Source of the DNA: a virus
Reading direction: 5' to 3' (one strand)
DNA length: 15,026 bases
Virus record (IMG/VR): IMGVR_UViG_3300045988_095445
Shown here piece by piece: positions 163 to 15,026 of the stretch; positions within the stretch are counted from its first letter, which is position 1; each line of letters opens with the position of its first letter. The notes under the pieces were generated by a model. The model saw only the letters and a program-made list of their open reading frames with translations, had not been told where the DNA came from and did not search any database. The translations under genes and the position numbers were made by a program.

Positions 163-181
163 AACAAATATAACATATATT

Positions 182-1975: not shown

Positions 1976-2326
1976 TTAGTTGAGAATTATTGGATATGCC
2001 TTGCGAATAACCACCGTAACCATGGCCGGGGGAGTGTCGCACAAGAAACGGTCATTTCTGATAAAACGACCAATTCCCATATTCTGCCACAAAGTCCGGT
2101 TTACATCCTCGTATCGGAGGGTATTATACTTGGAAAGTTTGATATGCCAATCATAGATAAAGCAACCATCTTCCGGCATGGTGTAATCTGGCGCCCGCTT
2201 ATAATTTCTCGTATGTTCCGCGGCTCTGCGCTCAAGATCATTTGTCGTACCAATCTTGAGAATATAGCGCCCCTTTTTGTCGATGTAATGTCCGACATAT
2301 AGGAACTCTTTTCCTCTTGTCTGCAA
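1976..2326 (-). CDS. GIY-YIG family nuclease, small standalone domain of 116 aa.
   Basis: LYVGHY...YILKIGTTNDLERRAAEH matches GIY-(10)-YIG-(x)-R-x3-E/H, with downstream E and N (YEDVN). The track ORF starts at TTG with no good SD, so the start is uncertain. Confidence 0.65.
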   Translation of the reverse strand: MQTRGKEFLYVGHYIDKKGRYILKIGTTNDLERRAAEHTRNYKRAPDYTMPEDGCFIYDWHIKLSKYNTLRYEDVNRTLWQNMGIGRFIRNDRFLCDTPPAMVTVVIRKAYPIILN

Positions 2327-2351
2327 ACCAACTATAACTTACCTCTTTTCT

Positions 2352-2379
2352 GGTAGGGCCGGGGTAGGCCGACCCTACC
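2352..2379. terminator. GC-rich hairpin GGTAGGG...CCCTACC between gene 2383-2700 and the GIY-YIG gene.
   Basis: 7-bp stem. T-rich on the + side only, so it may act as an attenuator. Confidence 0.35.
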
Positions 2380-2382
2380 CCG

Positions 2383-2700
2383 TTATTTCTTCGGTTTACG
2401 CTTTTGCACAAGCGTCAACTCGAAACTATCCCCACCAATAGAAAACGCAATCTGTCTTTCCTTGTTAGTAATAGACAAGTCAGCGATAGAGAATTGACTG
2501 TTTTTTTCCAAAAACTCTGCCAATTCCGCAATTATACCGCCTTTCGTGGCGTTTGGCTTGCGTTGCCGTGTAGTGAACTTATATGCGGTTGGCTGTTTGC
2601 GCGTTCCAGCATGGGCAAACTTTTGAGCGATTTTCGCCTTTTCTGGCGGTAAATCGTATTCAGTCTTTTTATCAGCCTCTACCGCCTTATCATAGGCCAA
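2383..2700 (-). CDS. Hypothetical basic protein, 105 aa.
   Basis: ORF with TAA stop and SD GAGGAGG upstream. No motif recognised. Confidence 0.55.
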   Translation of the reverse strand: MAYDKAVEADKKTEYDLPPEKAKIAQKFAHAGTRKQPTAYKFTTRQRKPNATKGGIIAELAEFLEKNSQFSIADLSITNKERQIAFSIGGDSFELTLVQKRKPKK

Positions 2701-2805
2701 TAAATCTGCCTCCTCTTCCGGCGTTAATTGCAGGGCTTTATACCTTGCAATCCGTTCAGCGTCACTAATGCGACTGGATATAATATCACCCCCATATTAT
2801 AAGTT

Positions 2806-2830
2806 AGGGCGGGGATTTTCACCCCGCCCT
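2806..2830 (-). terminator. Hairpin AGGGCGGGG-ATTTTCA-CCCCGCCCT. It is nearly identical to the hairpin at 5597-5622.
   Basis: 9-bp perfect stem immediately after the stop of gene 2839-3249. Confidence 0.6.
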
Positions 2831-2838
2831 ATACGGGG

Positions 2839-3249
2839 TTACGCCATCTTAAAGAGGGACTTGCCCTTCTTCTCCGTGCAGACTACTCGACCATCGAATT
2901 TCAACTGCCGCACAAGAGCGGCGACCTTCTGGTTAGAATAGGCCGTCAGATCAGGAATAGCCTTAAAAATTTCCGTGCAGGTCACGCCATCGGTATCGGC
3001 GTCCAGACCAGCCAGATACTCCATAATCTGCTCCTTAAAATTCTCATTCTCCTGCTGGGTGGGAGTCAACTTCTTATCACCGCTGGAGCTATTCTTCTTA
3101 CGCAGAAGCTCCAGCTCATGGTCAATGACAGTAATAGCCACCTCGATGGTAGTGCCATACTTTACCTCGCCGTCAGTCAAGAGGGCCTTAATGTCCTCAA
3201 AACGCTGGGCCTTAGTAGTGCGGATTTTCTTCTCGTCCATAATATACAT
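2839..3249 (-). CDS. Hypothetical protein, 136 aa. It is driven by four tandem promoters.
   Basis: ORF with TAA stop and SD AAAGGA. The C-terminal VTCTEIFKAIPDLTAYSNQKVAALVRQLKFDGRV might be a winged-helix, but that is weak. Confidence 0.6.
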   Translation of the reverse strand: MYIMDEKKIRTTKAQRFEDIKALLTDGEVKYGTTIEVAITVIDHELELLRKKNSSSGDKKLTPTQQENENFKEQIMEYLAGLDADTDGVTCTEIFKAIPDLTAYSNQKVAALVRQLKFDGRVVCTEKKGKSLFKMA

Positions 3250-3283
3250 CCTTTCTGGTTTTTAGGACTGTCCTTGTCCTTTG

Positions 3284-3490
3284 ATTATATTGTACCACAC
3301 TATTTGGTACTTGTCAAGAGGTTTTTCAAACTTTTTTCAAGAACTTTTGCTCTTTACTTGTTTGCCCTCTCAACCTCCCTTATAGTGTAACACACTTTGG
3401 AAAGTTTGTCAAGTCCTTTTTATTTAATTTTCAAGGTACATTGCCTTGTTTTCTGTACCTATTATAGCACATCTTCAAAGGCTTGTCAAG
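3284..3490 (-). promoter_or_regulatory. Three tandem near-consensus sigma-A/sigma-70 promoters on the minus strand, each with extended -10 (TGn).
   Basis: TTGACA-17-TGgTACAAT (3289-3317), TTGACA-17-TGtTACACT (3384-3412) and TTGACA-17-TGcTATAAT (3461-3489). Spacers counted directly. Confidence 0.75.
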
Positions 3491-3560
3491 AGGTTTTTGA
3501 AAGATTTTTGAGAAATTCGCTGTCGCTGTCTGCCGTTCGTTTCTCTCACTTTCTGAATGT

Positions 3561-3760
3561 ATTTTACCACAAGCAAAAGCAGATTGCAAGCGTCAAATTG
3601 CACAAAAATTGGAATTTTGGGAGAAAGTTTTTGTGCAGAATTTTGCACAAAACGGGGCTGAAATTTTTGTGCAACATTTACAAAGAAAAACTCGGGTCGC
3701 GCCGTTCCTGCGCGACCCGCTCAAATTTTGTATAAAAAAAGAAGGGCCGAAGCCCTTCTT
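3561..3760 (-). promoter_or_regulatory. Intergenic module A. On the minus strand it runs: terminator 1 (3741-3758), GC-hairpin terminator 2 (3693-3719), palindrome TTGTGCA-N6-TGCACAA (3631-3650) plus half-sites TTGCACAA (3598) and TTGTGCAA (3666), then promoter TTGCAA-17-TGgTAAAAT (3561-3589).
   Basis: Read directly. Terminator 1 (AAAAGAAGGGCCGAAGCCCTTCTT) is identical to 6509-6531. Confidence 0.7.
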
Positions 3761-3941
3761 AACAGAAAATACAGTTATCCAGAAAATCAAACAGGTGTTC
3801 ATCCTCAATGGGAACATTTACCAGCATATTTCCATCTTCGTCAATATCATCATGACACCATCCTATACGCTCAATAATTTGAATTGCCATGTAAACGGCA
3901 TCTGCACACAGAGAAGAGGTATATACAATTTTTGTTACCAT
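3759..3941 (-). CDS. Small protein, 60 aa (MVTKIVYTSSLCADAVYMAIQIIERIGWCHDDIDEDGNMLVNVPIEDEHLFDFLDNCIFC).
   Basis: The 111-aa track ORF 3759-4094 is a fusion artefact. The real start is ATG 3941, with SD GAGGAGG 6 nt upstream, right after the TAA of the upstream gene. Confidence 0.6.
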   Translation of the reverse strand: MVTKIVYTSSLCADAVYMAIQIIERIGWCHDDIDEDGNMLVNVPIEDEHLFDFLDNCIFC

Positions 3942-3942
3942 T

Positions 3943-4134
3943 TTATTCCTCCTCGAAATCATCAACCCCATATTGTCTCTGATATTCGTCACAGTCAAAC
4001 CATGGCTCACCCAAAGAGCAACAAAGTGATTCCGTGTCAAAATCTGGACAGATAGTATCATAGATTTGTTCTGGATCCATGCCTTCCTCGGCATAATGCG
4101 GGCAACTCCACCGCATACAATGAACCTGAGACAT
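3943..4134 (-). CDS. Small acidic Cys-rich protein, 63 aa (six Cys, possible Zn-binding).
   Basis: ORF with TAA stop and SD AAAGGA. Stop-start adjacent to the 60-aa gene. Confidence 0.55.
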   Translation of the reverse strand: MSQVHCMRWSCPHYAEEGMDPEQIYDTICPDFDTESLCCSLGEPWFDCDEYQRQYGVDDFEEE

Positions 4135-4148
4135 ATTATTTCCTTTCT

Positions 4149-4176
4149 GCCGGGCGGGGCTTTAAGCCCCTACCCG
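4149..4176 (-). terminator. Hairpin CCGGGCGGGGCTT-TAA-AGCCCCTACCCGG.
   Basis: Stem GGGGCT/AGCCCC plus an outer CCGGG/CCCGG pairing, immediately downstream of the exonuclease stop. Confidence 0.5.
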
Positions 4177-4986
4177 GATAGTTGGAATTGAACGCATACT
4201 TGCGGAAAGCTGACGCTGAAAATCTGTCATAGGAGGAAATTCTCTCTTATTCTCATACAGAGCCTTTCTCATGGGCTTATGTTGACGCATACAGTACCAC
4301 ATGATTTCCGCCTCAATGAGAACATCTTCAAGCCCCGTATGACTTTCCTCAAAATCGGTATTTCCAGAGATAAACCGCCACACGATTTCCGCAGTCTTAC
4401 GAGGAACGCCATTGGCCTGGATATATCCATTTTCCTGACAGAATTTCTTATAAGTGGGCATATTGCAGATAACATCTTGTGTCATCTTCATAATGTCCCA
4501 AATTTCCACACTGTCAAACGGGAACCAGTAGCGAAACTTAGAGCAAGTGACCCATCGTTGAATGACCCGCAGAGCGTTATCGTCAAACCGGGCATTATAA
4601 GCAGCCACCTCTTTAATGCCGTATCGCTCGATAGTATCAAGCATAGCCTGCCGGATTTCATAGGTTGTAGCCATCTTACGAGTGCCGGCCCGCAATTCCT
4701 CAACATAGCGGGGGATTTTCCAATTATAATAGGCCGTCCGCATTAAATCCCGCTCGTCATTGAAAATGTCCCGATTTACAAAACTTGCAGTTTCGTAAAT
4801 ATTGCCCTTGGTATCTACTACGGCCCAGCCGCAGTCATATACCAGTACATTTGACATATCCATGCGGACACGCTCAGGAGTGATAATCTCCCCATCTTCC
4901 CCGATTTCAGCGGGAACGGTTTCGGTTAGTGTGTTGGCGGTTTCAGTGTCAACCACCAGCACATAATGTCTGCGTTTATCAATCAT
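4162..4986 (-). CDS. DEDDh-family 3'-5' exonuclease (DnaQ/RNase T-like), 274 aa.
   Basis: Exo I VLVVDTETAN, Exo II VAAYNARFDDNAL and Exo III HTGLEDVLIEAEI (H-x4-D) in canonical order. Confidence 0.75.
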   Translation of the reverse strand: MIDKRRHYVLVVDTETANTLTETVPAEIGEDGEIITPERVRMDMSNVLVYDCGWAVVDTKGNIYETASFVNRDIFNDERDLMRTAYYNWKIPRYVEELRAGTRKMATTYEIRQAMLDTIERYGIKEVAAYNARFDDNALRVIQRWVTCSKFRYWFPFDSVEIWDIMKMTQDVICNMPTYKKFCQENGYIQANGVPRKTAEIVWRFISGNTDFEESHTGLEDVLIEAEIMWYCMRQHKPMRKALYENKREFPPMTDFQRQLSASMRSIPTIRVGA

Positions 4987-5020
4987 AATCTATCAAGTCC
5001 TTTCTTCTCTTGATGGTATT

Positions 5021-5049
5021 ATTATAGCACATTTAAGGCTTGGTGTCAA
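5021..5049 (-). promoter_or_regulatory. Consensus promoter TTGACA-17-TGcTATAAT (minus strand).
   Basis: -35 at 5044-5049 and -10 at 5021-5026, spacer 17. Confidence 0.7.
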
Positions 5050-5211
5050 GAGGAAAAGGAAATTTTGTTGCGATTTATTGCAAGCTACTGGACGATGGAA
5101 TGGCCTATTCCAAAGGCGCTCGCTCGACTTATAACACAAATACCCATTTTCTTCCTTTACTTTCTAAGAGTTCGCGACCTCTTGATTTCTTGGCCTCTCC
5201 CTCCTGACATG

Positions 5212-5380
5212 ATAATAATACCATACTTTTGGGAGAATTGCAAGATGGCAAATTGCACAACTTTTTGCCACCAAAATTGTGCAACATCTACAAAGAAAAA
5301 AATTCGGCGCGCCGCGTGCGTCAGCGCGCCGCTCAAATGACAATAAAAAAATACCCCTCTCATTATTGAGAGGGGTATTT
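5212..5380 (-). promoter_or_regulatory. Intergenic module B: terminator hairpin 5353-5378, GC-hairpin terminator 5305-5331 (identical to 6461-6487), TTGCACAA (5253) and TTGTGCAA (5278), promoter TTGCAA-17-TGgTATTAT (5215-5243).
   Basis: Read directly. Confidence 0.7.
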
Positions 5381-5581
5381 TTAATATCCAATATATTCCC
5401 TGTTGATTAGTTCATCTATTCCGTATACCAGATCATCAAGAGAGATAGGAAAGTCATCATCAATTTCATTATCTTCCATATTCCTGCTAATCTGGCTTAT
5501 GAGGATTGACGCATCTCTCAAGGCTTTTTTCTCTATCGAACCGAGAACAAGCCTATTAACTTTCCGAATTTCCATTTGCAA
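5381..5581 (-). CDS. Small acidic protein, 66 aa.
   Basis: ORF with TAA stop. No promoter of its own, so it is probably co-transcribed with the upstream genes. Confidence 0.45.
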   Translation of the reverse strand: MQMEIRKVNRLVLGSIEKKALRDASILISQISRNMEDNEIDDDFPISLDDLVYGIDELINREYIGY

Positions 5582-5596
5582 AACTCCCTTTCTTTG

Positions 5597-5622
5597 CGGG
5601 GCGGGGATTTTAACCCCGCCCT
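5597..5622 (-). terminator. Hairpin GGGCGGGG-ATTTTAA-CCCCGCCC. It is a near-copy of the 2806-2830 hairpin.
   Basis: 8-bp GC stem after the stop of gene 5628-6089. Confidence 0.55.
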
Positions 5623-5627
5623 CTTAC

Positions 5628-6089
5628 TCAGTTTAGATTGTTGATATATTCGATTATGTCTGTCTCTCCTGGATTTATTGTATCTCCTAAATGCCAACCG
5701 TGCCTAATTTTATCATTATCATCAAAAAGGATAAACGGCGGTTCATAGAAACTACGGAATACACATTTGGCTTTGGTCGTTCCGTATGCTACACAATGGC
5801 ATTTATGAGCCGGGAATTTATACCTTGCAAGCCATTCCTTTTTAGCGGCTGTGACTGCTTTCTTATATTCGGGAGTGCTTTCGGGCGGTAGCCATGTAAT
5901 TACTCTAATTTCCCATCCGTTATTGATTGCCTTTAGAAGCGCATTTCTAAGAGCTTCCATGTCCCACATAGGGGCCGCGTCTCGGAATGGGGTGGGGTCT
6001 CCATTGCGGAGTTTTTCGAGCCAATTAGGGACTGCATACAAGTCCGCGATAGTTCCATCCATGTCAAAGCAGAGCATTTTTTTAGTCAT
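5628..6089 (-). CDS. HAD-superfamily hydrolase, probably a 5'(3')-deoxyribonucleotidase-like (NT5C family) nucleotidase, 153 aa.
   Basis: Motif I FDMDGTIAD (DxDGT), Ser/Thr motif (VITW), Lys (KKEW) and motif IV FDDND. The start overlaps the upstream gene end. Confidence 0.6.
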   Translation of the reverse strand: MTKKMLCFDMDGTIADLYAVPNWLEKLRNGDPTPFRDAAPMWDMEALRNALLKAINNGWEIRVITWLPPESTPEYKKAVTAAKKEWLARYKFPAHKCHCVAYGTTKAKCVFRSFYEPPFILFDDNDKIRHGWHLGDTINPGETDIIEYINNLN

Positions 6090-6095
6090 TGTATA

Positions 6096-6344
6096 TCAAT
6101 CTCCTTTTGTTTTATTATACCACTTGTTGCCTACCTTGTCAACAAGTTTTTCAAAAAAAGTTTTACGCCGACATACCTTATAAGGTATTGACATATAATC
6201 TACATAGATCAGAGGATCTTGTAAAAGCACAGTCTGTATATAAATCTCATAATTAACCGGGGTAGTAGTATGCCCGAATTGTCTATGATAAATTTCAGCT
6301 ACGGTTAAGTATTCGTTAGGCTGAATAAACTTTGAAGGTTTCAT
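6096..6344 (-). CDS. Hypothetical protein, 82 aa. Its 3' end encodes the promoter and SD for the HAD gene.
   Basis: Strong SD GGAGGGG. TGA stop 6 nt before the HAD ATG. Confidence 0.55.
   Translation of the reverse strand: MKPSKFIQPNEYLTVAEIYHRQFGHTTTPVNYEIYIQTVLLQDPLIYVDYMSIPYKVCRRKTFFEKLVDKVGNKWYNKTKGD
6114..6142 (-). promoter_or_regulatory. Consensus promoter TTGACA-17-TGgTATAAT embedded inside the coding sequence of gene 6096-6344. It drives the HAD gene.
   Basis: -35 at 6137-6142, -10 at 6114-6119, spacer 17. Confidence 0.55.
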
Positions 6345-6371
6345 TTAGTATCCCCTCCTTTTTCTGTACTA

Positions 6372-6531
6372 ATAATACCATAATTTAAGGATAATTGCAA
6401 GATGGCAAATTGCACAAGATTTCAAGACAAAAATTGTGTAGAACTTACAAATAAGAAAACTCGGCGCGCCGCGTGCGTCAGCGCGCCGTCGAATTTTTAG
6501 TATATAAAAAAGAAGGGCCGAAGCCCTTCTT
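6372..6531 (-). promoter_or_regulatory. Intergenic module C: terminator 6512-6529 (same as 3741-3758), GC hairpin 6461-6487 (same as 5305-5331), TTGCACAA (6409), TTGTGTAG (6433), promoter TTGCAA-17-TGgTATTAT (6372-6400).
   Basis: Read directly. Confidence 0.7.
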
Positions 6532-6990
6532 TTATCTTTCAGCCATATTTGAAAAATACCTTGCGACTAGTTTAACCATTTCATGAATAGATTCATCATT
6601 GTGCAAATTTTTGTAACAAATGAATCCAATTTGTCCACCATCAGAAAAAATGGGAGTAATAAACATAGATTTCCACGCTGTCGCAGGTTGGCTGATATTA
6701 CTCCATTCATCTGGTGGTATAGAAATTTTGAAAGAACTAGGCCCGCTTAAAAGTTTATCTGAATCGAAGATTGCCGCGGAAATGTGATTAACAGAAAGGG
6801 CATTTCGCATTTCGTGGGCATGGTCAACGAAAAAAGATAGTGGAGAATATTTCTTGAAGGCTATACAGTCGCCATCAAGAAAAATTTCCATAGGGTCGCC
6901 TTCTCTAATTCGCATACTCCTACGAATTTCTCTAGGAATAACAATACGCCCTAGGTCATCAATATGTCGAACAATACCAACAGCTCTCAT
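6532..6990 (-). CDS. spoVT: SpoVT/AbrB-family regulator. It has an N-terminal swapped-hairpin DNA-binding domain and a SpoVT-like (GAF-type) C-terminal domain, 152 aa.
   Basis: GIVRHIDDLGRIVIPREIRRSMRIREGDPMEIFLDGDCIAFKKYSPLS is near-identical in pattern to B. subtilis SpoVT (GIVRRIDDLGRVVIPKEIRRTLRIREGDPLEIFVD...KKYSPIS). The C-terminal ...PIFSDGGQIGFICY...LVARYFSNMAE resembles SpoVT ...PIVANGDPIGAVVIF...FLARQME. Confidence 0.85.
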   Translation of the reverse strand: MRAVGIVRHIDDLGRIVIPREIRRSMRIREGDPMEIFLDGDCIAFKKYSPLSFFVDHAHEMRNALSVNHISAAIFDSDKLLSGPSSFKISIPPDEWSNISQPATAWKSMFITPIFSDGGQIGFICYKNLHNDESIHEMVKLVARYFSNMAER

Positions 6991-6999
6991 TTTTTTATC

Positions 7000-7033
7000 G
7001 CGGGAGCATAGAATACAAGTCCTATACTCCCGC
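7000..7033 (-). terminator. Weak hairpin GCGGGAG-N20-CTCCCGC between genes 7045-7443 and 6532-6990. It is possibly an attenuator.
   Basis: 7-bp stem with a long loop. No promoter lies between the two genes. Confidence 0.3.
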
Positions 7034-7044
7034 GCCTCCTTTCC

Positions 7045-7443
7045 TTAAAGCGATTTCCGCAGTTCGTCTAGTAGAGTAGACAGAGTTTTCATATCGCCGC
7101 CCATTTCCAGCTTGACACAAATCAGGCTTGCATTTTCCTCTACCCACTTTGTCACAGTGGACAGCTCTTCATCCATCGTTTGATTGATGGGGTTGTAAAG
7201 ACTGCACATATTTGACTTGGCGCACTCCGGGTCATAATAGCGGCGGAGCTTATATCCCTTTGCCGTGGCGCGCTCAATAATCTTTGTATTCAGCGCCTCA
7301 ATCTCTTTCCGGCCTTCCTCGATAAAATCCTCAAACTCTTTCATAGCTCCCGCATACTTGGCTCGGATTTCCTCTCGTTTGGCGTTCGCAATCTTGTTGA
7401 CCTCGTCATTGATATAGGCTTCAATCCTCTTAGTAACACGCAT
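7045..7443 (-). CDS. Hypothetical protein, 132 aa.
   Basis: ORF with TAA stop and the promoter just upstream. Confidence 0.55.
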   Translation of the reverse strand: MRVTKRIEAYINDEVNKIANAKREEIRAKYAGAMKEFEDFIEEGRKEIEALNTKIIERATAKGYKLRRYYDPECAKSNMCSLYNPINQTMDEELSTVTKWVEENASLICVKLEMGGDMKTLSTLLDELRKSL

Positions 7444-7501
7444 TTCTAAAACTCCCTTTCTTATTTTAATTTATTTTTGGGGCTGCCCCTTCCATAGTCT
7501 T

Positions 7502-7530
7502 ATTGTACCACAGAAGGGGCAATTTGTCAA
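7502..7530 (-). promoter_or_regulatory. Promoter TTGACA-17-TGgTACAAT.
   Basis: -35 at 7525-7530, -10 at 7502-7507. Confidence 0.7.
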
Positions 7531-7537
7531 CCCCTTT

Positions 7538-7768
7538 TTACAAGGAAAGTAAATCCATCATAGTCATTTCATCAACCGCCTTATCGGCTTCCTCATCGAA
7601 AATACCCTTGATAATATCGGCCGCGTCATCGGGAGTACATATGCCGATCCGCAGGAATTTCCCCAAAGACTGGAGCATTGCCTGTGCTGCTTCTCCTGGG
7701 CAGAACTCCTCCATGGTCTTATGCAGAAGAATAATCCCCTGTCTATCCTGCTCAGTCATTCTATACAT
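7538..7768 (-). CDS. Hypothetical acidic protein, 76 aa.
   Basis: ORF with TAA stop. Confidence 0.5.
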   Translation of the reverse strand: MYRMTEQDRQGIILLHKTMEEFCPGEAAQAMLQSLGKFLRIGICTPDDAADIIKGIFDEEADKAVDEMTMMDLLSL

Positions 7769-7819
7769 AGCAATATTTCCTTTCTGGTTTAATGAGTTTT
7801 CCTTCTCTTTACATTATTG

Positions 7820-7848
7820 ATTATACCACTGTTTAAGCGGTTTGTCAA
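7820..7848 (-). promoter_or_regulatory. Promoter TTGACA-17-TGgTATAAT.
   Basis: -35 at 7843-7848, -10 at 7820-7825. Confidence 0.7.
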
Positions 7849-7852
7849 CCCT

Positions 7853-7990
7853 TTACATCAAATTTTTTGCCAAATATGCGAACATTAGAATTTCTGCGGC
7901 AAACATGATTTCAAGCCGAATACAGCCTTTTTGAGCAGCCGCCATTAACTGCCATGCAAGGCAGGCCACAAACGCAATCAAAACAATCAT
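7853..7990 (-). CDS. Possible 45-aa hydrophobic peptide (MIVLIAFVACLAWQLMAAAQKGCIRLEIMFAAEILMFAYLAKNLM).
   Basis: ORF below the track cutoff. The SD is 22 nt from the ATG and the ORF lies between a terminator and the next promoter, so it may not be expressed. Confidence 0.2.
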   Translation of the reverse strand: MIVLIAFVACLAWQLMAAAQKGCIRLEIMFAAEILMFAYLAKNLM

Positions 7991-8023
7991 TGTGAAGGTA
8001 GTTATATATATACTCCTTTTCTG

Positions 8024-8050
8024 GTTAAGAGGGTTTATACCCTCTTAACC
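8024..8050 (-). terminator. Hairpin GGTTAAGAGGG-TTTATA-CCCTCTTAACC overlapping the stop of gene 8035-8268.
   Basis: 11-bp perfect stem with the TAA stop in the loop. Confidence 0.55.
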
Positions 8051-8268
8051 TCGATAATCTCCATATCGAAATCTTCCCAATATGCGCCCATGAGAAGGTC
8101 ATGCCGCAAGTCCCCTTCATTCTCATAGTCCATATCTTCCAGAATTTGGCTCCACTCGCTTTCGGAATACTGGGCCTTGAGCCAGTCCCATCCCGCATGG
8201 CGTGCGCCAGTTTCAGTATCAGAAACGCCGATAATCTTTTCTCTACTGTCAGCCATTACCAGATACAT
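8035..8268 (-). CDS. Hypothetical acidic Trp-rich protein, 77 aa.
   Basis: ORF with SD AAAAGGAGA and TAA stop. Confidence 0.55.
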   Translation of the reverse strand: MYLVMADSREKIIGVSDTETGARHAGWDWLKAQYSESEWSQILEDMDYENEGDLRHDLLMGAYWEDFDMEIIEVKRV

Positions 8269-8321
8269 AACTCATTCTCCTTTTGTTTCGAGGGCTTTTG
8301 TTCTCCCCTCTTGATGATACA

Positions 8322-8505
8322 AGTATAACAGATAGCAGATAGAAAGTCAAGCAATTTTGGGAAAAAATCTTCCGTCAGATTGCACAACAATTCGAGCCTA
8401 AAATTGTGCAAATTGCCTCTTGATAAAAAATTCCGGCCGCGCCTGTGGTGCACGGCCGGGCGAACGAATAAAAAAAAAGAACCTCCTGAATTTCAGGAGG
8501 TCATT
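8322..8505 (-). promoter_or_regulatory. Intergenic module D: terminator 8481-8504 (ACCTCCTGA-ATT-TCAGGAGGT), GC hairpin 8433-8459, TTGTGCAA (8404), TTGCACAA (8380), promoter TTGACT-17-TGtTATACT (8322-8350).
   Basis: Read directly. Confidence 0.7.
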
Positions 8506-8543
8506 AATTTCTGCATACCAACAACTTCCTTTCTTTTGAGAAG

Positions 8544-8777
8544 TCAATCGGCATTTTCAACAATCTTTAATCCGTTTGCTTGGATAATTTTCATAGCTTC
8601 TTCAAGCGAGGAATCAACCGATCCGCAGTCGATACAGATATATTTTCTGCCATCTTTTACCATAGTAGTAAAATAGTATTCTTGGCCAGAAACAAGGCCC
8701 ATCTACTCTCGCAGTCTTACTGGAATCATGATACGCCCACTTGAATCTAATTTCCTTGAGAAAGTAGTTTCTTGCAT
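8544..8777 (-). pseudogene. AbrB-fold (swapped-hairpin) gene with one in-frame TAG at 8703-8705. It is either an amber-recoded gene (one 77-residue protein) or a nonsense pseudogene.
   Basis: MQETTFSRKLDSSGRIMIPVRLRE-[TAG]-MGLVSGQEYYFTTMVKDGRKYICID... aligns colinearly with AbrB RKVDELGRVVIPIELRR-T-LGIAEKDALEIYVDD, with the TAG occupying one residue position. There is no SD upstream of the ATG. Stop is TGA at 8544. Confidence 0.55.
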
Positions 8778-9014
8778 TTTGATAAATAAATTCTAGTGAC
8801 CTAGGCTCGTGCGAAAAACGACTCCATCACGGGAATCGCCGATTTAGAACAATCGGAAGGAACATTTACCACTCGCAAGGCATTTTCTGGCAGAACTGAG
8901 ACATAGGGCAATTTTACAAGAATCCTAGTTCAAACAGAACTCTAAAATAACCGCGAGTGCTTTCAGCACTTCTAAGGTCATTAGAAAAACTCCTTTCTTT
9001 ATTTTTCTATAATT

Positions 9015-9043
9015 ATTATAATATATTTTTTTGAAAAAATCAA
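9015..9043 (-). promoter_or_regulatory. Promoter TTGATT-17-TATAAT, followed by SD AAAGGAG and an 18-aa ORF (8923-8979) containing hairpin GAAGTGC-TGAAA-GCACTTC, then about 200 nt untranslated.
   Basis: -35 at 9038-9043, -10 at 9015-9020. Leader-peptide-like arrangement upstream of the AbrB-like gene. Confidence 0.45.
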
Positions 9044-9182
9044 TAGGGCCGGCATTACGCCAGCCCTAATCTCTGTAACCAAACCAGATGGTATTTACCA
9101 ATGTGAAGTAGAACTGTGCCATATCCCTTATTTGTCCAAACAGTGGAACCGATAGGATATGTATGCGGTAAACGCTCAATAC

Positions 9183-9398
9183 TCACTTTAGTTCCACCTC
9201 CTCGAAAGCTCCAATTTTTAGCAGATAATTATATAAGGCTCTATCTTGTTTGTCGCCGGTATTAAAATCAAGAGTACGAACACAGCCGGTAACATTGGAA
9301 TTAAGAGGATGATTCAAACACCAACCAGCCATATTACAAATTGTGTCTCCAAACTCCGCAGATTTTTCTACACTTTCAAATTTAATAACAGCAATCAT
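9183..9398 (-). CDS. Hypothetical protein, 71 aa.
   Basis: Strong SD AAAGGAGGAAT. TGA stop. Confidence 0.55.
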   Translation of the reverse strand: MIAVIKFESVEKSAEFGDTICNMAGWCLNHPLNSNVTGCVRTLDFNTGDKQDRALYNYLLKIGAFEEVELK

Positions 9399-9421
9399 AT
9401 TTATTCCTCCTTTTTATCATG

Positions 9422-9450
9422 GGGAGTGGAGGTTTGTGGCCTCCACTCCC
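9422..9450 (-). terminator. Hairpin GGGAGTGGAGG-TTTGTGG-CCTCCACTCCC between co-oriented genes. It may act as an attenuator.
   Basis: 11-bp stem. The next gene's SD follows immediately with no promoter. Confidence 0.5.
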
Positions 9451-9460
9451 GCAAGTTTTC

Positions 9461-9700
9461 TTAATCATCTACATAAATGATTAAATTGTTATCTCTTGCC
9501 TCAATGCCGGTTACCTGAAGTCCTAGAACCCATTCCTTAGATATCTCGATTACGTCTCCTCCCAGAGTTATTCTACCATCAGGTAATTCATGGTAATGAG
9601 CTTGGGTATTCTTATTGATAATTTCAAATCCCTCCCCGTCAAAGAACATAGTATCTTCTGCAAGCGGAGAAAGTAACCAAGCAACCATATCTAAAGTCAT
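9461..9700 (-). CDS. Hypothetical acidic protein, 79 aa.
   Basis: ORF with SD AAAGGAAG and TAA stop. Confidence 0.55.
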   Translation of the reverse strand: MTLDMVAWLLSPLAEDTMFFDGEGFEIINKNTQAHYHELPDGRITLGGDVIEISKEWVLGLQVTGIEARDNNLIIYVDD

Positions 9701-9754
9701 TTTTTTTACTTCCTTTCAAATTCTTTTTGTGGCCTGTCCCTTTGGACAAGTATA

Positions 9755-9955
9755 TAATAACACATGGCAAAAGGAATGTCAAGTAATTTCGGGAGAAAAA
9801 CTTTCGTCGAATTGCACAGACTTTCGGTCATATAATTGTTGAAATTGCCGAATAAATAAAAATTCGGGCCGCGGCGCACGCTGGCGGCCCGGCGAAAAGT
9901 CAATATGGAAAAGTGCATAAAAATGACTGGCAATCTTTGTGTAGATTGCCAGTCA
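9755..9955 (-). promoter_or_regulatory. Intergenic module E: terminator 9925-9953 (11-bp stem), GC hairpin 9865-9891, TTGCACAG (9812), promoter TTGACA-17-TGtTATTAT (9755-9783).
   Basis: Read directly. Confidence 0.7.
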
Positions 9956-9967
9956 AGTATTATTCCT

Positions 9968-10201
9968 TTACAGCTCCATGGTTTCCATGAGATAGCCCGT
10001 GCCCATCGGCACCTCCCGCAGATTGCTGGGACTTATACGCAACTTATATTTCCTATTGATTTTATTCGCCGCACTTGTCTTATCTCTCGCTTGGACAATT
10101 ACTGGTATATGGAGTTTATTTAGAGTGGGCTTATTAAGACTGAAATATCCCATCTCTCTGCGCTTGCGGCCCATGGCGTCGATATAAGTCCCTCTATACA
10201 T
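9968..10201 (-). CDS. Hypothetical basic protein, 77 aa.
   Basis: SD GGAGG 5 nt before the ATG. TAA stop followed by a terminator. Confidence 0.55.
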   Translation of the reverse strand: MYRGTYIDAMGRKRREMGYFSLNKPTLNKLHIPVIVQARDKTSAANKINRKYKLRISPSNLREVPMGTGYLMETMEL

Positions 10202-10212
10202 TTTTCCTCCTA

Positions 10213-10359
10213 TTATTTAGTCATGAGAACGAACATATTATATTCGCTGTGCTGTGGGTTTGGCTCACAGTTATCTGCCACTATATCAGCCCAACTAAGA
10301 ACTGTCCAGAGTAGGAGAGCGGCACAAATGCCGCCTCCTATCCGCTTAATAATTCTCAT
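10213..10359 (-). CDS. Small membrane or secreted peptide, 48 aa (MRIIKRIGGGICAALLLWTVLSWADIVADNCEPNPQHSEYNMFVLMTK).
   Basis: Its ATG overlaps the TGA of the upstream gene (ATGA). The N-terminal hydrophobic segment suggests a membrane location. It is below the track cutoff. Confidence 0.4.
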   Translation of the reverse strand: MRIIKRIGGGICAALLLWTVLSWADIVADNCEPNPQHSEYNMFVLMTK

Positions 10360-10658
10360 TTCCATTTCTTTGCCTCCTGTTCTTTAACCCATTCAGTACC
10401 GATTGTATCTCCGACCATAGCAACCTTATATTCGTCTTCGCTTACAATTCTGGTATGCAGATTGCTATTGATAAACTTTCTATTGATATAAGCCCAGTGT
10501 GGCATATAGGCCACTCGCATGGCATTAAAAGCATCCAGGTCTAAGATGATGCCGTCCTCTACCTCTGCGGAACGCACATTCATCTTATACCGCAAAAGTT
10601 TAATAAATTCACGCTTTCTAAAAGTAGGCCCAACGAACCATTTAATATAATTGTTCAT
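10356..10658 (-). CDS. Hypothetical protein, 100 aa.
   Basis: ORF with SD GGGGAGAAAGGA and TGA stop. Confidence 0.55.
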   Translation of the reverse strand: MNNYIKWFVGPTFRKREFIKLLRYKMNVRSAEVEDGIILDLDAFNAMRVAYMPHWAYINRKFINSNLHTRIVSEDEYKVAMVGDTIGTEWVKEQEAKKWK

Positions 10659-10704
10659 AGTCTTTTATCCTTTCTCCCCGTATAGCCGTTAGGTCAGCTT
10701 CTTT

Positions 10705-10851
10705 TTAATCTACGATTTCTCCACTGGATAAATCCACAATCCAATGATTAGGATTGACTATCTCGTGACTGACCTTCCATCTTGCCATTGAAAGGGTGGA
10801 TGGTTCATAATAGCGCATTTTCTCATTGGCTAAAACTTGTAACTGATACAT
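10705..10851 (-). CDS. Small protein, 48 aa (MYQLQVLANEKMRYYEPSTLSMARWKVSHEIVNPNHWIVDLSSGEIVD).
   Basis: SD AAAGGGG 8 nt upstream. It is the first gene of a four-gene unit. Below the track cutoff. Confidence 0.35.
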   Translation of the reverse strand: MYQLQVLANEKMRYYEPSTLSMARWKVSHEIVNPNHWIVDLSSGEIVD

Positions 10852-10880
10852 ATAGTATGCCCCTTTCTTTTAATTATTAT

Positions 10881-10917
10881 AACCCTGCCTTGCCTTGTGT
10901 TTTGCAAGGCAGGGTTT
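10881..10917 (-). terminator. Hairpin AACCCTGCCTTGC-N-GCAAGGCAGGGTT.
   Basis: 13-bp stem after the stop of gene 10926-11300. Confidence 0.65.
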
Positions 10918-10925
10918 ATAAACTG

Positions 10926-11300
10926 TTATCCTCTAATTTCTTCTTCTTGGGTCTTTGTCGCCCAATCAAAAGAGGTACGAACATCGGAAGGTCTGCGGAA
11001 TTGCTCTGCTTCGGCCTCTGTCCCGCCTAATGCCATAGCATAGGCTTTCCAGTCAACCGTTCCTTTTGCGGTAGTTTCTTTATATACCACCGCTTTCGCC
11101 TTACTTTGCATTTGTACCGTGCCATATAGATAACTTGTTTTGTCCGTAGCCTTAAAAGCCTTACCTAATCTGGAGAATAGCTCTTTAGCCTTAGCCTTAG
11201 CTGCTTTCTCCGCCGCCTCCGCCGCAGACTTAGCCATCTTAGCGGCCATATACTCCATAATAATGGCTCGATCTTCATTGGTAAAATCAATCTTTTTCAT
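10926..11300 (-). CDS. Hypothetical Ala/Lys-rich protein, 124 aa. The true start is the internal ATG at 11300, not 11363.
   Basis: SD AAAGGGAG lies inside the track's N-terminal extension, so the track start is wrong. Contains coiled-coil-like AAKMAKSAAEAAEKAAKAKAKE. Confidence 0.55.
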   Translation of the reverse strand: MKKIDFTNEDRAIIMEYMAAKMAKSAAEAAEKAAKAKAKELFSRLGKAFKATDKTSYLYGTVQMQSKAKAVVYKETTAKGTVDWKAYAMALGGTEAEAEQFRRPSDVRTSFDWATKTQEEEIRG

Positions 11301-11353
11301 ACTCTTTTGACTCCCTTTCTTTTTGTGGTGTGGTTCTCTTTTGTTCTGTCTGT

Positions 11354-11479
11354 ATTGTATCAAACCTTTAGCAGTTTGTCAATACCTTTTTTGAAATTTT
11401 TTTAATTTTCAAAGTGCCGTGCTTTTGTCTCTGTCCTACTGGACAAGTCCAGTTTACCACCAAAATGCTCACTTGTCAA
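11354..11479 (-). promoter_or_regulatory. Two tandem promoters: TTGACA-17-TGaTACAAT (11354-11382) and TTGACA-17-TGgTAAACT (11451-11479).
   Basis: Spacers counted directly. Confidence 0.65.
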
Positions 11480-11504
11480 TAGTTTTTTTGAAATTTCTTT
11501 CTCT

Positions 11505-11570: not shown

Positions 11571-11574
11571 CCTT

Positions 11575-11660: not shown

Positions 11661-11753
11661 TGTATTTTGGGAAAAACTGGAAATTTTTTTGTAAAATCGT
11701 TCTGCCACGCCATTTCAAAATCTAAATCGACTTTTCAATCTCAATAACGAAAA

Positions 11754-11778
11754 AGAGAGAAGAACTCACTTCTTCTCT
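11754..11778 (-). terminator. Hairpin GAGAGAAG-N9-CTTCTCTC followed by a T-run. It shares the stem sequence of the 672-697 terminator.
   Basis: 8-bp stem followed by TTTTTCGTTATTG on the minus strand. Confidence 0.6.
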
Positions 11779-12188
11779 CCGCATTTACACTTCTTTTTTA
11801 AATTATATATAATATGATATTCTCCACAGACTTTGCCGTCAAACCATACTAATACTTTATCCATCGTCGGTTGCCTCAAAACTAAAAATCAAATTATATC
11901 CATCCTCTAGTTTAATATTAATCGCATCAGATCTCCACATTGTAGGAATATACTCTAGCCTTGGATAACGATTGTTCTGTCAACAATAGTAAAATCAAAA
12001 CTATCCTAATTCTTCGCTCTACAAACTACTCCGCTATCCAATTATGGAATAAGTCTCTATAGAGGCTTATTCCTATATGATATATAAGACCGTCAACTTC
12101 TTTACTTCCCCAATATAACTTTTCCAATAGAAGCATGGGAAACTTGTGCGGCAAGTTTCCCTAGTCTCACCTCGCAATAATTAATTGC

Positions 12189-12640
12189 TTAAAACCTCCA
12201 AGAAAATTCTAAAATTGCGGGAATTGCAAAATAGATATTTGGAATATTATAATTGCGGGCTGCGTTTACGAGCAAGGTGGCGACCGTTGATGGATCTTGC
12301 ATAAAAACACCACAGCCCCAGGCTCCCGCGATTAAATTTTCCACTCCCTTAACCTCGGCAATTCTCTCTTCCATTATCCTATTGTTTAGAGAAAGAGGAA
12401 CTTTACATCAGCTAATTTTATACTATCGTCTTTTTCAAAGACTATAGATAGCTCTATCAAGATATAGGGCTCGATTCAGTCTCTGCCATAAGTATCATCA
12501 AAAGCAAGAAGAATAGGGTAAAGGTTGCTTTCGTGACACAATGCCTCTTCTACCACCTGGATGTATAATTTAAGATCGCAGTCTTGCTCCGATCGGTTAA
12601 ACCGAATAGACAGGATACGCTATCTTGGTCTTTAAGATAA
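12189..12640 (-). pseudogene. Decayed PARG-like macrodomain (DUF2263/TIGR02452-type) gene. Three collinear fragments are broken by TGA, TAA and a frameshift. The track ORF 12189-12374 is the C-terminal fragment.
   Basis: Fragment ...YIQVVEEALCHESNLYPILLAFDDTYGRD*(TGA) resembles the QEE/LCR-S-LY region. Then IEPYILIELSIVFEKDDSIKL* follows, then (frameshift) MEERIAEVKGVENLIAGAWGCGVF... with the GAWGCGVF diphosphate-loop motif. Family assignment is from memory of the motifs. Confidence 0.45.
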
Positions 12641-12713
12641 AAGGTATTATGGTGGGTTTCTCGCGGTTTTTGCAGTTTCCTTTCTTCCGTGCGGTTGGGC
12701 AGAAGTGGATAAT

Positions 12714-12893
12714 TTAATTATCCCAATCTTCAAATAAAGTGTGTAAACTATTTGTTTCCGCCGCCAATCTCTTTAAATATTCTTTAAGAATTTTATTTTC
12801 TTTAACTTTAATTGCATAATCGCAAGTATTGTCGCAGTCTGGTGTGTACTACCGACCGAATCTATTATAACAATAATCAATACAAGGACACAT
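12714..12893 (-). CDS. Small Cys-rich protein, 59 aa (MCPCIDYCYNRFGR-[TAG]-YTPDCDNTCDYAIKVKENKILKEYLKRLAAETNSLHTLFEDWDN) with one in-frame TAG.
   Basis: The ATG sits 1 nt after the TAA of the upstream gene (TAAAATG). No TAA/TGA until the end, and TAG at codon 15. Below the track cutoff under the standard code. Confidence 0.45.
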
Positions 12894-12894
12894 T

Positions 12895-13248
12895 TTACTC
12901 ATATTTACACCCATTCATTCTACAGTCTATTGTGCATTGCCCTGACGCTCCTTCACAAGGAATAGCATCAGGATAGTATTCAAAATAAGACGAGGTTAAT
13001 AGAACTTCATATCCAAGTTCCCGCAGTATTCTTTCTGCGACATATCTATCTCTTAATTTAATCCATTCTTCTCTATTTACTTTTGTTTCTTCATATATTT
13101 TTCGAGATTCTTCCATATCTATTGTTATGATACCATCGGTGTTAGTTTTAAATACTGAAGGACTTTGTGTATGATAAAATTTTCGAAAGGGATTGTTAAT
13201 ATGAAGAACTTCTTCAGCATATTTGTCAAAATCTCCCGAAAATTTCAT
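12895..13248 (-). CDS. Hypothetical Cys-rich protein, 117 aa (C-terminal CEGASGQCTIDCRMNGC). The true start is ATG 13248, overlapping FolD's TAA (TAATG).
   Basis: The track ORF 12895-13341 is N-terminally over-extended into FolD. It is translationally coupled to FolD. Confidence 0.55.
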   Translation of the reverse strand: MKFSGDFDKYAEEVLHINNPFRKFYHTQSPSVFKTNTDGIITIDMEESRKIYEETKVNREEWIKLRDRYVAERILRELGYEVLLTSSYFEYYPDAIPCEGASGQCTIDCRMNGCKYE

Positions 13249-14033
13249 TATCTTTGCGCCTGTTTCGCTAACTATAAACAATTTTTCATCAACCCCAATC
13301 TTGTTAATAGACCTACTCCTCCGGGGACAGGAGTTGACCATACATTATTTCTTTTTGCGATTTCATCAATTTCTACAAAATCACCAAGAATAATTCCTGC
13401 TTCATTTCTGCGAATACCAACATCTATAACAATAGCGTTAGGACAGGCTTCTCTTGTTAAGCTAAATTTTCCTACCGCAGAGACAATTAAATCTGCTTGC
13501 CTTGTTAAATAGAGTTTTGTATTTATATCTGTTTTGCTATGACATACTGATACGGTCATATTTCTATCCAGTAGAGCTTTAGCCATTGGCTTTCCTACAA
13601 TATCGCTTCTTCCCAAAACAACAGCAGATTTACCTTCGTAGTTAAAACCACATTCATCCAAATAGTCTATAATTCCTCTTACTGTTGCTGGAGTAATATT
13701 GCTCATAGGATTTAAACCATCCGCATCTTTAGAGATAGGTATTTGACTATAATTGAAATCAATTCCATTTGCTACTGGCATTTGAACTATTACCGCATCC
13801 CAGTCTTTCGCATGGCCTAAGAGTAATCTTAACTCTACTGAACTATTCGCTCTAAACACTTCTGCTTCCCAACCAAGAGCATTAAAGTCTTTTATTTTAT
13901 TACGAATATAAATTTGATTTGCGGGATCCTAGGCTGTTGCGTCGATAATCATGAGTGATGGAACATTACCACTAATCTCCCGCAATTTGTTTACCTATTG
14001 TTGAAAATATTCTTTTATATTAATCTATTGCAT
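13248..14033 (-). CDS. folD: FolD (bifunctional methylene-THF dehydrogenase/cyclohydrolase), 261 aa when TAG is read as sense. It has four in-frame TAG codons (14025, 13995, 13929, 13272) and a TAA stop at 13248.
   Basis: The track fragment 13272-13859 shows GKSAVVLGRSDIVGKPMA...VIDVGIRRNE...TPVPGGVGLLT, the canonical FolD C-domain. Upstream in-frame translation continues colinear with the FolD N-terminus (...NVPSLMIIDATA[TAG]DPANQIYIRNKIKDFNALGW) back to ATG 14033 with SD GGAGG. Only TAGs interrupt the frame. Confidence 0.8.
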
Positions 14034-14352
14034 CTGGATCAAGCCTCCAAGGATCACTAGTATCGTAATCAATCATTTCATAGAAAGATATTTCATTTTC
14101 ATTAACTTCTAATACCTAGTGAGGAATACACTATACTTCATAATCAAAATCTTTATTAATATGGTAAGAAGTATATATATGAATAGCAATAGGTCTAGGA
14201 TCATTAACTCCCTAAATATCCCATAAACTTATTGCTTTATTTTGGAAGATTTCCTAAGCATACTATGGAGATATAGCAATACTGATTATTAAGATATTAA
14301 AATAATACTATGCTTTTTCCGGTAAATCTAAATATGGTTCGTCAAAGAACAT
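14020..14352 (-). CDS. Hypothetical protein, 110 aa, with six in-frame TAGs and a TAA stop. It is the first gene of the leftward operon.
   Basis: ATG 14352 with SD AGGAG. 111 codons contain six TAGs and no TAA/TGA. The translation looks protein-like (..DPRPIAIHIYTSYHINKDFDYEV..). Its end overlaps the FolD start. Confidence 0.5.
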
Positions 14353-14389
14353 TGGCAAACAAATCTCCTATCTTATTTTTTATAATTAT

Positions 14390-14454
14390 ATTATAGCATT
14401 TTTAAATAAATTAATCAAATAAGATTTGACAATCTAGTTTTTTTTTGTTATTAT
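14390..14454. promoter_or_regulatory. Divergent back-to-back consensus promoters: minus-strand TTGATT-17-TGcTATAAT (14390-14418) and plus-strand TTGACA-17-TATTAT (14426-14454).
   Basis: Spacers counted directly. The plus -10 abuts ATG 14455, so the real start of the plus gene is ATG 14479. Confidence 0.7.
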
Positions 14455-14478
14455 ATGAGTATAAAAGGAGATGACAGT

Positions 14479-15026
14479 ATGATAAAATTAGATTATACTA
14501 TTGAGTCTCCAGAAGAACGGAAGGCGCTTGTCGAAAAAATAATCGCAGAAAATCCGAACCTTAGTTCGAGTTATTTAGAAATATTAGCAGATTATTTAGT
14601 TCTATGTATGGAAAAGCAAGAGAAGAAAGAAAAGAATATATTAACAGATAATAGAATGGCTACTGTTAATAAAAGAGAATGTTCTTTCGAAGGGCTTGCG
14701 TCATAGATGGAAAATGGCGAGGATGGCATTTATGGTTTAATGTCAGAAAATAAAAATGTTATATTTTAGCCAAAGATTTCTATTACACAGAAAGATTTAG
14801 ATACTATACCATGTTTAAAATAGTTGAGAGAAACCATTAATGTCTGGGAGGGCGCTTTAAAACGCGCTGCTGGGACAAAATAGGCATATATGATGAAAAA
14901 AGCATTAATAGAGATGCGAAAAGATTAGTATATCATTAAGCAAGCATATTAGAAACCTATTATACCATGTAAATTAACGAGATCCGTAAGAACTCATATT
15001 CCTCTTGATGATTAGAGTTATCTTAA
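14479..15026 (+). CDS. Partial gene (more than 180 codons, continuing past the window end). It has seven in-frame TAGs and no TAA/TGA.
   Basis: SD AAGGAG 14465-14470 with ATG 14479. The track ORF stops at TAG 14704. The same frame stays open through TAGs at 14704, 14767, 14821, 14881, 14926, 14950 and 15011 to the window end. Confidence 0.55.

Follow-up and report, generated by a model that had tools for sequence, protein, structure and literature searches.

Recoded phages of the human gut are the closest described systems, and the model of Borges et al. (bioRxiv 10.1101/2021.08.26.457843) has early genes that are compatible with the standard code, then a suppressor tRNA, then recoded structural and lysis genes, and also covers a recoded homing endonuclease within early genes. 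Peters et al. (PMC9523058) refer to this as 'the current hypothesis', with proteomic support in crAss-like phages. Additionally, phAss-1 of the proposed Phassvirus (Babkin et al. 2023, PMC10607447) is a human gut phage of ~136 kb with TAG reassigned to glutamine, a tRNA-Sup(CTA), ~30 tRNAs, a giant tape measure and TAG in the TerL, portal and tail genes, set in a wider monophyletic group of which some members suppress TAG. The stretch of DNA analyzed here, the 15,026-nucleotide IMG/VR virus record IMGVR_UViG_3300045988_095445 (hereafter the window), belongs to a phage in which a run of small early-type genes (1976..11400, minus strand) shuns in-frame TAG and the virion genes that begin at its right end use TAG heavily as glutamine. 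The phage clearly adds one more case to a pattern that is already in print, and TAG-to-glutamine recoding is known in its broad lineage.

Like other recoded gut phages (bioRxiv 10.1101/2021.08.26.457843; crAss-like phages, PMC7886860; PMC9523058), it combines TAG as glutamine under code 15, a phage suppressor tRNA, in-frame TAG in only part of the genes, early genes compatible with the host code and recoded structural, lysis and homing-endonuclease genes, and the predicted host phylum of several of those clades is likewise the Firmicutes. Unlike them, it has a virion module of the SPbeta/EF1-like lineage, a suppressor tRNA with a perfect sigma-A promoter ahead of it, placed at the end of a ~20 kb tRNA array and away from the lysis cassette, and a TAG share of 50% among virion-arm glutamine codons with the capsid and four other virion genes TAG-free; the 84% of the genome that was read yielded no release factor 2 (RF2) or aminoacyl-tRNA synthetase (aaRS) 'code-change module'. 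The word 'capsid' is absent from the main text of the Borges et al. preprint (bioRxiv 10.1101/2021.08.26.457843). The likeness to phAss-1 extends to the human gut habitat, TAG as glutamine, tRNA-Sup(CTA), ~30 tRNAs, the giant tape measure and TAG-bearing TerL, portal and tail genes, with TerL 44% identical. The differences are that one suppressor tRNA was seen here and two or three there, that the phages of PMC10607447 are called rare whereas the present phage is very common in public assemblies, and that that paper gives no account of a partition in the early region, of the promoters or of TAG-free major proteins. The phage falls outside Phassvirus, members of which share 80–86% at the nucleotide level, as the window had no megablast match in a phage collection including OQ749652 and TerL is only 44% identical to that of phAss-1.

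Judged by its structural genes, the phage is SPbeta/EF1-like and long-tailed. The standard-code phages of that group (SPbeta-like phages, Enterococcus phages EF1, H1 and VRE9_4, and Geobacillus virus E3) resemble it in their genomes of 134–142 kb and in the Pfam YonB, YonD_N and YonG_N families of the virion arm, and TerL identity is 48–50% to Enterococcus phages EF1/H1 and Geobacillus virus E3. When the whole window was searched at the nucleotide level, GenBank phages gave no match, and the more distant relatives of the phage in IMG/VR carry TAG at 0–1%. The window offers an unusually clean natural case of dual-code-compatible early genes beside strongly recoded late genes in a very common gut phage, with promoter, terminator and suppressor-tRNA positions mapped well enough for experiment design. 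Beyond the published model are the TAG-free capsid and four further virion genes in an operon with 50% TAG and a set of relatives graded from 0 to 50%, two details that could split temporal-lock from translation-cost explanations of partial recoding.

TAG in the cassettes and across the genome

The window is a 100% match to positions 3643–18668 of a 143,126-bp human-gut scaffold in ENA (ERZ28626606 MEHT18-1 scaffold_6). A genome walk using the near-identical IMG/VR contig 3300045988_084596 (146,360 bp; 99.4% identity to the window across the overlap) and one metagenome contig allowed ~84% of the genome to be read; genome-wide genes were called with a simple code-15 caller of our own that gave TAG no weight in its score. 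Assuming a circular map, two arms diverge at ~14.4 kb of the window and end convergently. The rightward arm is the virion module (~39 kb, 26 genes), which opens with a 348-aa gene followed by a YonG-like gene, the terminase and the portal and further on encodes a YonB-like capsid protein, a 2901-aa tape-measure protein and the tail genes. The leftward arm (>80 kb) carries, in order, FolD and the window cassettes, further small genes, a tRNA array of ~20 kb with 29 tRNAs and a tmRNA, and metabolic, topoisomerase and replication genes. Within the window, almost every credible gene between 1976 and 14352 is on the minus strand behind strong Shine-Dalgarno (SD) sites, e.g., AGGAGG and AAAGGAG.

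The cassette region comprises 22 small genes with a coding fraction of ~69% and long spacers that hold promoters and terminators. An initial reading made from the sequence alone (the sequence-only reading) had described roughly 20 genes from 1976 to 11400 that end in TAA, or a few in TGA, and lack in-frame TAG, and curation bore this out: the 22 genes (1976–11300; 2158 codons) stop at TAA (17) or TGA (5) and never at TAG, and contain a single in-frame TAG against 28 CAA and 30 CAG. Out of frame, TAG makes up 57 of the 4316 triplets in these genes, from which ~28 would be expected in frame; with off-frame TAG this common, composition fails to explain the in-frame scarcity. The pattern holds among 98 distinct early-cassette proteins from 11 related contigs (5 TAG against 299 CAA/CAG), and three of those five TAGs are alleles of one gene, the AbrB-like gene discussed below. 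A zero count of in-frame TAG is trivial for any open reading frame (ORF) that was delimited under the standard code, so the facts that carry weight are the lack of TAG stops, the tiling of the strand by genes with strong SD sites, and the observation that reading TAG as sense lengthens the AbrB-like gene alone.

Two further TAG-bearing candidates in this region were rejected. A plus-strand ORF of 226 aa with two TAGs (1817–2497), present in public annotations, reads as an antisense artefact of gene calling under code 15, as the minus strand opposite holds a T5orf172-like gene (1976–2326) and its neighbour (2383–2700) with a protein-like reading; the public calls of several contigs likewise place here a plus-strand gene of 161–280 aa with two to three TAGs. 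The ORF at 8844–8981, despite a good SD, is not conserved, with 1-nt indels and a 30-nt duplication in relatives shifting its frame. Automatic calls on these contigs err in both directions, with the standard code truncating FolD and the AbrB-like gene and code 15 inventing an antisense gene.

The AbrB-like gene (8544..8777, minus strand; 77 aa) is the sole TAG-bearing early gene, and the sequence-only reading had correctly singled it out as the lone exception: it has one TAG, at codon 25 (8703–8705), and no SD upstream. Its matches to MazE_antitoxin (19 bits, cut-off 24.7), MraZ (21.4, cut-off 23) and TIGR01439 (17.6, cut-off 28.3) are all below curated thresholds, and these weak AbrB/MazE/MraZ matches span the TAG. 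Two alleles, TAG25/CAA32 and CAA25/TAG32, differ at many synonymous sites as well. This single gene in its two alleles is suggestive of a regulator that may depend on the suppressor.

To the right of the cassettes, four genes contain 17 TAG and 15 CAA/CAG in 670 codons, an excess over the early set that is highly significant (Fisher p = 7e-9). These are a 117-aa gene without TAG (12895..13248, minus strand); a FolD-like gene of 261 aa (13248..14033, minus strand) with TAG at codons 3, 13, 35 and 254; a 110-aa gene (14020..14352, minus strand), the first of the leftward arm, with 6 TAG against 1 CAA/CAG; and the 348-aa gene (14479..15026, plus strand), the first of the rightward virion arm, which runs off the right end of the window with 7 TAG in the 182 codons included and 11 in all. 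The ATG of the 117-aa gene overlaps the TAA of FolD (TAATG), so FolD stops at this TAA and not at the TAG upstream. The sequence-only reading had called these operons TAG-dense with a TAG every 15–20 codons. The excess stands, and that spacing fits the 110-aa gene alone, with FolD at 1 per 65, the 348-aa gene at 1 per 26, none in the 117-aa gene and an overall rate of 1 per 39 codons; the stretch from 11.7 to 12.9 kb is a degraded remnant of two genes and not an operon dense in TAG.

Genome-wide, the late (virion) arm has 293 TAG against 289 CAA/CAG, or 50% of its glutamine codons, of which 111 TAGs lie in the tape-measure gene. The corresponding tallies are 1 against 52 for the early cassettes and 70 against 506 for the rest of the early-strand arm. 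These 70 are clustered in the endolysin (Phage_lysozyme2, Amidase_2 and SLH domains; TAG in 9 of 23 glutamine codons), the adjacent NAGPA-SPOR protein, tail-fibre-like genes and four to five homing-endonuclease-like genes, and the early, replication and metabolic genes are nearly without TAG. Long, AT-rich genes of the leftward arm lack it altogether, including a GyrA-like gene (0/24 glutamine codons), a vault-like gene (0/29), a 434-aa gene (0/19) and a NAMPT-like gene (0/14). The homing-endonuclease-like genes (L066 11687–12634, 13788–14309 and 20648–21046; L077 12558–13469; L227 11432–12169, L numbers denoting related loci) have 3–10 TAG each amid TAG-free neighbours and are scattered across the tRNA array and the metabolic genes. 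One LAGLIDADG motif was seen among them, and several share the N-terminus 'L.GQRFGKL...C.C.CGN'. The distribution of TAG tracks gene function more than position. Third-position G+C content (GC3) is 0.44 in the cassettes and 0.22–0.27 elsewhere, with TAG-rich genes at 0.22–0.24. A strand-specific mutation bias was rejected as the source of the pattern, given that neither strand is free of TAG-rich genes (FolD, endolysin and homing endonucleases) and the coding strands of both arms are G-rich.

Glutamine at TAG, the suppressor tRNA and promoters

Several lines of evidence bear on what TAG means in this phage. The catalytic and NAD(P)-binding Pfam domains of FolD, THF_DHG_CYH (residues 5–105) and THF_DHG_CYH_C (111–259), run across all four of its TAGs, TerL with 13 TAGs aligns to the terminases of other phages across 93% of its length, and the portal protein matches its own PHROG family nearly end to end; TerL, the portal and other virion proteins have 5–111 read-through TAGs each. 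In comparisons with relatives at 80–95% identity, the virion TAG codons face TAG (75) or glutamine (58). With relatives below 80% identity, the residues at TAG positions (Q 36%, K 11%, E 9%) are nearly the same as those at CAA positions (Q 36%, K 12%, E 10%), and the AbrB-like alleles, which exchange TAG and CAA at codons 25 and 32, also fit glutamine. On these alignments, TAG is a sense codon meaning glutamine (code 15).

The suppressor tRNA and its promoter, which the sequence-only reading had proposed to look for, were both located. A tRNA(CUA) was found by ARAGORN in four relatives that are 97–100% identical (L073, L074, L075 and L077), scores 59.8 bits against the Rfam tRNA model, and has acceptor pairs 2–6 and the G73 discriminator in common with the phage tRNA-Gln(UUG). 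It lies at ~84,660 on contig 084596, on the early-gene strand, ~30 kb downstream of window position 1, where the tRNA array approaches its distal end. An extended sigma-A promoter with a perfect match (TTGACA-17-TGaTATAAT) is 440 nt upstream of the tRNA, with one TAG-free 108-aa gene and nothing else in between, and the four small genes that flank the tRNA are TAG-free. The window itself has no tRNA genes, and an Rfam scan of it, the AbrB leader included, returned no families.

Promoter calls here are matches to consensus. Between 3289 and 11382, eight minus-strand promoters match the sigma-A consensus at 11–12 of 12 positions with a 17-nt spacer and a TGn element: TTGACA-17-TGnTACAAT at 3289..3317 (11/12), and those at 3461–3489, 5021–5049, 6114–6142, 7502–7530, 7820–7848, 9754–9782 and 11354–11382. 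Promoters of like quality number ~7 in the ~100 kb examined elsewhere. Cassettes end, on the same strand, in GC-rich intrinsic-terminator hairpins with a T tail that form a repeat family (8433..8459, 3693–3719, 5305–5331 and 6462–6488), and a further hairpin terminator outside the scoring of that family is at 9044–9068. Based on these consensus matches and terminators, the cassette region resembles a set of transcription units for the host RNA polymerase. In large virulent phages, early clusters such as the pre-early and early module of T5 and the host-takeover module of SPO1 consist of many small genes, each with a consensus host promoter and a terminator, at one end of the map. By description, the cassettes are alike in having small genes behind host promoters with terminators at one map end, and differ in being held to dual-code-compatible codons as well. 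A divergent promoter-like pair occupies the intergenic region 14359–14478, with TTGACA-17-TGtTATTAT (14426–14454, plus strand; 11/12) facing the virion arm and its 348-aa gene and TTGATT-17-TGnTATAAT (14390–14418, minus strand; 10/12) facing the 110-aa gene and FolD.

Temporal order, translation cost and cassette ancestry

The host is predicted to be among the gut Clostridia, based on the binning of whole-phage contigs with Oscillospiraceae and Eubacterium metagenome-assembled genomes, on strong SD sites and on the SLH domain of the endolysin. To our knowledge, Clostridia use the standard code. The sequence-only reading had proposed a temporal lock, in which TAG-free early genes are expressed with the host apparatus and TAG-containing genes can be translated only once a suppressor is produced. 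We regard it as probable that the early genes are kept compatible with the host code and that the TAG-rich genes depend on the phage tRNA(CUA). The leftward cassette genes use only codons that read alike in the standard code and code 15, with TAG neither as sense nor as stop, and have strong SD sites behind consensus promoters, so that the cassette proteins could be made properly in a naive host with release factor 1 (RF1) terminating at TAG. Full-length products of TAG-containing genes would wait until tRNA(CUA) had built up enough to beat RF1, and the set so dependent would include the minor virion proteins, terminase, portal, tape measure, tail fibres, endolysin and homing endonucleases and, in the window, FolD and the 110-aa and 348-aa genes. 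As the suppressor is under a perfect host-type promoter, any delay would come from accumulation of the tRNA and not from a late promoter. A second pressure would keep the most abundant proteins TAG-free, including the capsid within the late operon. What favours this arrangement is the reading of TAG as glutamine, the tRNA(CUA), the eight cassette promoters and the concentration of TAG in virion, tail-fibre, endolysin and homing-endonuclease genes; the timing, the competition with RF1 and the selection of dependence as a lock are steps that we infer. With 111 TAGs in one essential gene, late infection would call for near-complete reading of TAG as sense, and a useful yield of the 2901-aa tape measure would presumably need near-complete reassignment.

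Several observations weigh against this proposal. Five genes within the virion operon are TAG-free (the YonB-like capsid with 0 of 13 glutamine codons, the preceding 229-aa gene, a 463-aa structural gene and two genes of 177–179 aa); pooled, they have 0 TAG in 37 glutamine codons, P = 5.6e-12 at the TAG share of the operon, and a purely temporal rule does not predict them. By their identity and position, these five are probably abundant virion components. TAG-rich genes, namely the 348-aa gene and the 110-aa gene with FolD, are directly behind near-consensus host-type promoters, and FolD has no obvious late function. The sequence-only reading had set its lock against a random scatter of TAG-containing genes, also behind strong early promoters: random scatter is absent, and TAG-rich genes do occur behind early-type promoters. 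The promoters themselves are called from consensus matches only, and the early-type promoter of the suppressor means that the lock, if any, may be short. The enrichment of TAG toward 5' ends that an efficient gate should produce is weak (TAG share 0.53–0.57 in the first three gene deciles and 0.39–0.50 in later ones; permutation p ~0.12 for the first TAG). Further, a crude search for a GGQ-type motif in any frame of ~84% of the genome found none, and neither RF2 nor an anti-RF1 factor nor a dedicated aaRS came to light in that same fraction, where the GGQ motif was the only search.

An explanation by cost, in which RF1 competition and a single suppressor gene make TAG slightly costly, so that it is purged according to expression level (the cassettes, by virtue of their consensus promoters and strong SD sites, and the major virion proteins being TAG-free through high expression) and weakly expressed genes gain it through drift and AT-biased mutation (CAG to TAG), accounts directly for the five TAG-free genes inside an operon with 50% TAG and for a capsid gene that has zero or one TAG in every recoded relative. 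It also suits the low GC3 of TAG-rich genes, the weak 5' enrichment and the relatives (capsid-centred loci L015–L064), in which the TAG share of the virion module is graded (~0–1%, 11–13%, 17–25% and 50%) as from gradual drift and which may represent stages of code change in one phage family; throughout this series the gene ahead of the capsid gene is likewise kept without TAG. Expression levels are themselves inferred in this account, however, and it sits poorly with the AT-rich, presumably moderately expressed early-strand genes that lack TAG (GyrA-like, vault-like, 434-aa and NAMPT-like), with virion proteins of like or lower copy number that have ~50% TAG, and with a TAG-rich endolysin between TAG-free neighbours; as the sole explanation it is a serious possibility, though somewhat unlikely. 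The misfits with a plain temporal lock suit a mixed picture, in which genes needed before the suppressor and genes needed in bulk shun TAG and the rest have drifted, or been selected, to heavy use.

Ancestry and composition might instead be responsible, if GC-richer mobile cassettes, each equipped with a promoter and terminator, were swapped among standard-code and recoded relatives and lack TAG through recent acquisition. The higher GC3 of the cassettes, the differences in cassette content between near-identical genomes, and the recurrence of promoter and terminator modules would all follow. Imported standard-code genes, however, should stop at TAG in roughly a fifth of cases, and 0 of 22 do so; off-frame TAG is frequent in the cassettes, and conserved, AT-rich genes spanning ~60 kb of the cassette strand also avoid TAG, all of which makes this explanation very improbable. 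The absence of any recoding, with TAG-interrupted ORFs as pseudogenes or assembly errors and the partition as an artefact of ORF definition, would fit the fragmentation of the right-hand genes under the standard code and the one truly degraded region at 11.7–12.9 kb. It is counted as refuted by the recurrence of the same TAGs in hundreds of independent assemblies, synteny across all loci read, domains continuous across TAGs, the glutamine-like substitution profile and the tRNA(CUA). A further elaboration of the temporal proposal would build the code switch into the regulatory circuit, with the AbrB-like and 348-aa proteins as putative regulators that need the suppressor and TAG density also setting stoichiometry in the late operon, an idea that we consider decidedly doubtful. 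If true, abundance of tRNA(CUA) would be the signal that closes early promoters and opens late transcription, and major proteins would be TAG-free and minor ones TAG-rich.

Other features of the window and its relatives

The phage is represented widely, with the 117-aa gene (12895–13248) in 1447 indexed blocks of the assembly collection, and the contigs bearing window genes are repeatedly 135–149 kb. G+C content is 40–46% in the middle of the window and 29–35% at both ends. Among the cassette genes, a TAG-free SpoVT/AbrB-type regulator of 152 aa (6532..6990, minus strand) has a domain match above curated thresholds. The 348-aa protein, at most a candidate sigma factor, matches PHROG 5767 (E = 1.5e-37), which is labelled 'sigma factor'; it has no match in Pfam or NCBIfam, and its AlphaFold model has a predicted local distance difference test (pLDDT) score of 75.5.

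Cassette spacers share near-identical modules, as in 5213–5331 and 6370–6488 (119 nt, 84%) and in 3735–3760 and 6506–6531 (26 nt, 100%), in which terminator hairpin and promoter elements are combined, which suggests that cassettes are shuffled through recombination at these modules. The leader of the AbrB-like gene (8778–8990, minus strand), ~200 nt from the cassette promoter to the start codon, has one difference among 12 sequences, and the first 100 nt of the coding region have ~20 variable sites, mostly synonymous. The leader may be structured, protein-bound or a recombination boundary.

Between the cassettes and the 117-aa gene, the remnant at 11713..12895 (minus strand) is what is left of two genes, one for a PARG-like macrodomain protein and one for PTH2, both frameshifted and partly deleted. 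In relatives (L004 10580–11769) the two are intact, with PARG_cat_microb (255 aa) ahead of the PTH2 peptidyl-tRNA hydrolase (145 aa), and the genome of the window is ~1 kb short by comparison. A peptidyl-tRNA hydrolase in a phage with a recoded stop codon is of possible interest.

At the left end, window positions 1–166 hold five copies of a 27-nt unit, ATTTCATGGTATTCTGACAATACTATG, 89–100% identical and irregularly spaced, with an inverted repeat in each, an arrangement that resembles an array of operators or iterons. Immediately to the left of the window, the parent contig has a small RHH (ribbon-helix-helix)-type gene and two other plus-strand genes. Some relatives have at this position a 212-aa HTH (helix-turn-helix)-type gene (L066 2273–2911, minus strand of the locus), not present in the genome of the window, in which TAG makes up 11 of 12 glutamine codons, the highest share seen.

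The tmRNA inside the tRNA array (L072 9155–9485; L076 7487–7802) scores 70.9 bits against Rfam RF00023, with a gathering score of 47, and its tag peptide in one relative is DNDYFENYLAA according to ARAGORN. Straight after the suppressor-tRNA region, L077 13506–17882 holds two TAG-free genes whose pairing is unusual in a phage: one encodes a DUF2828/DUF7788 protein of 507 aa that weakly matches vWA, the other a protein of 813 aa with the repeat and shoulder domains of the major vault protein.

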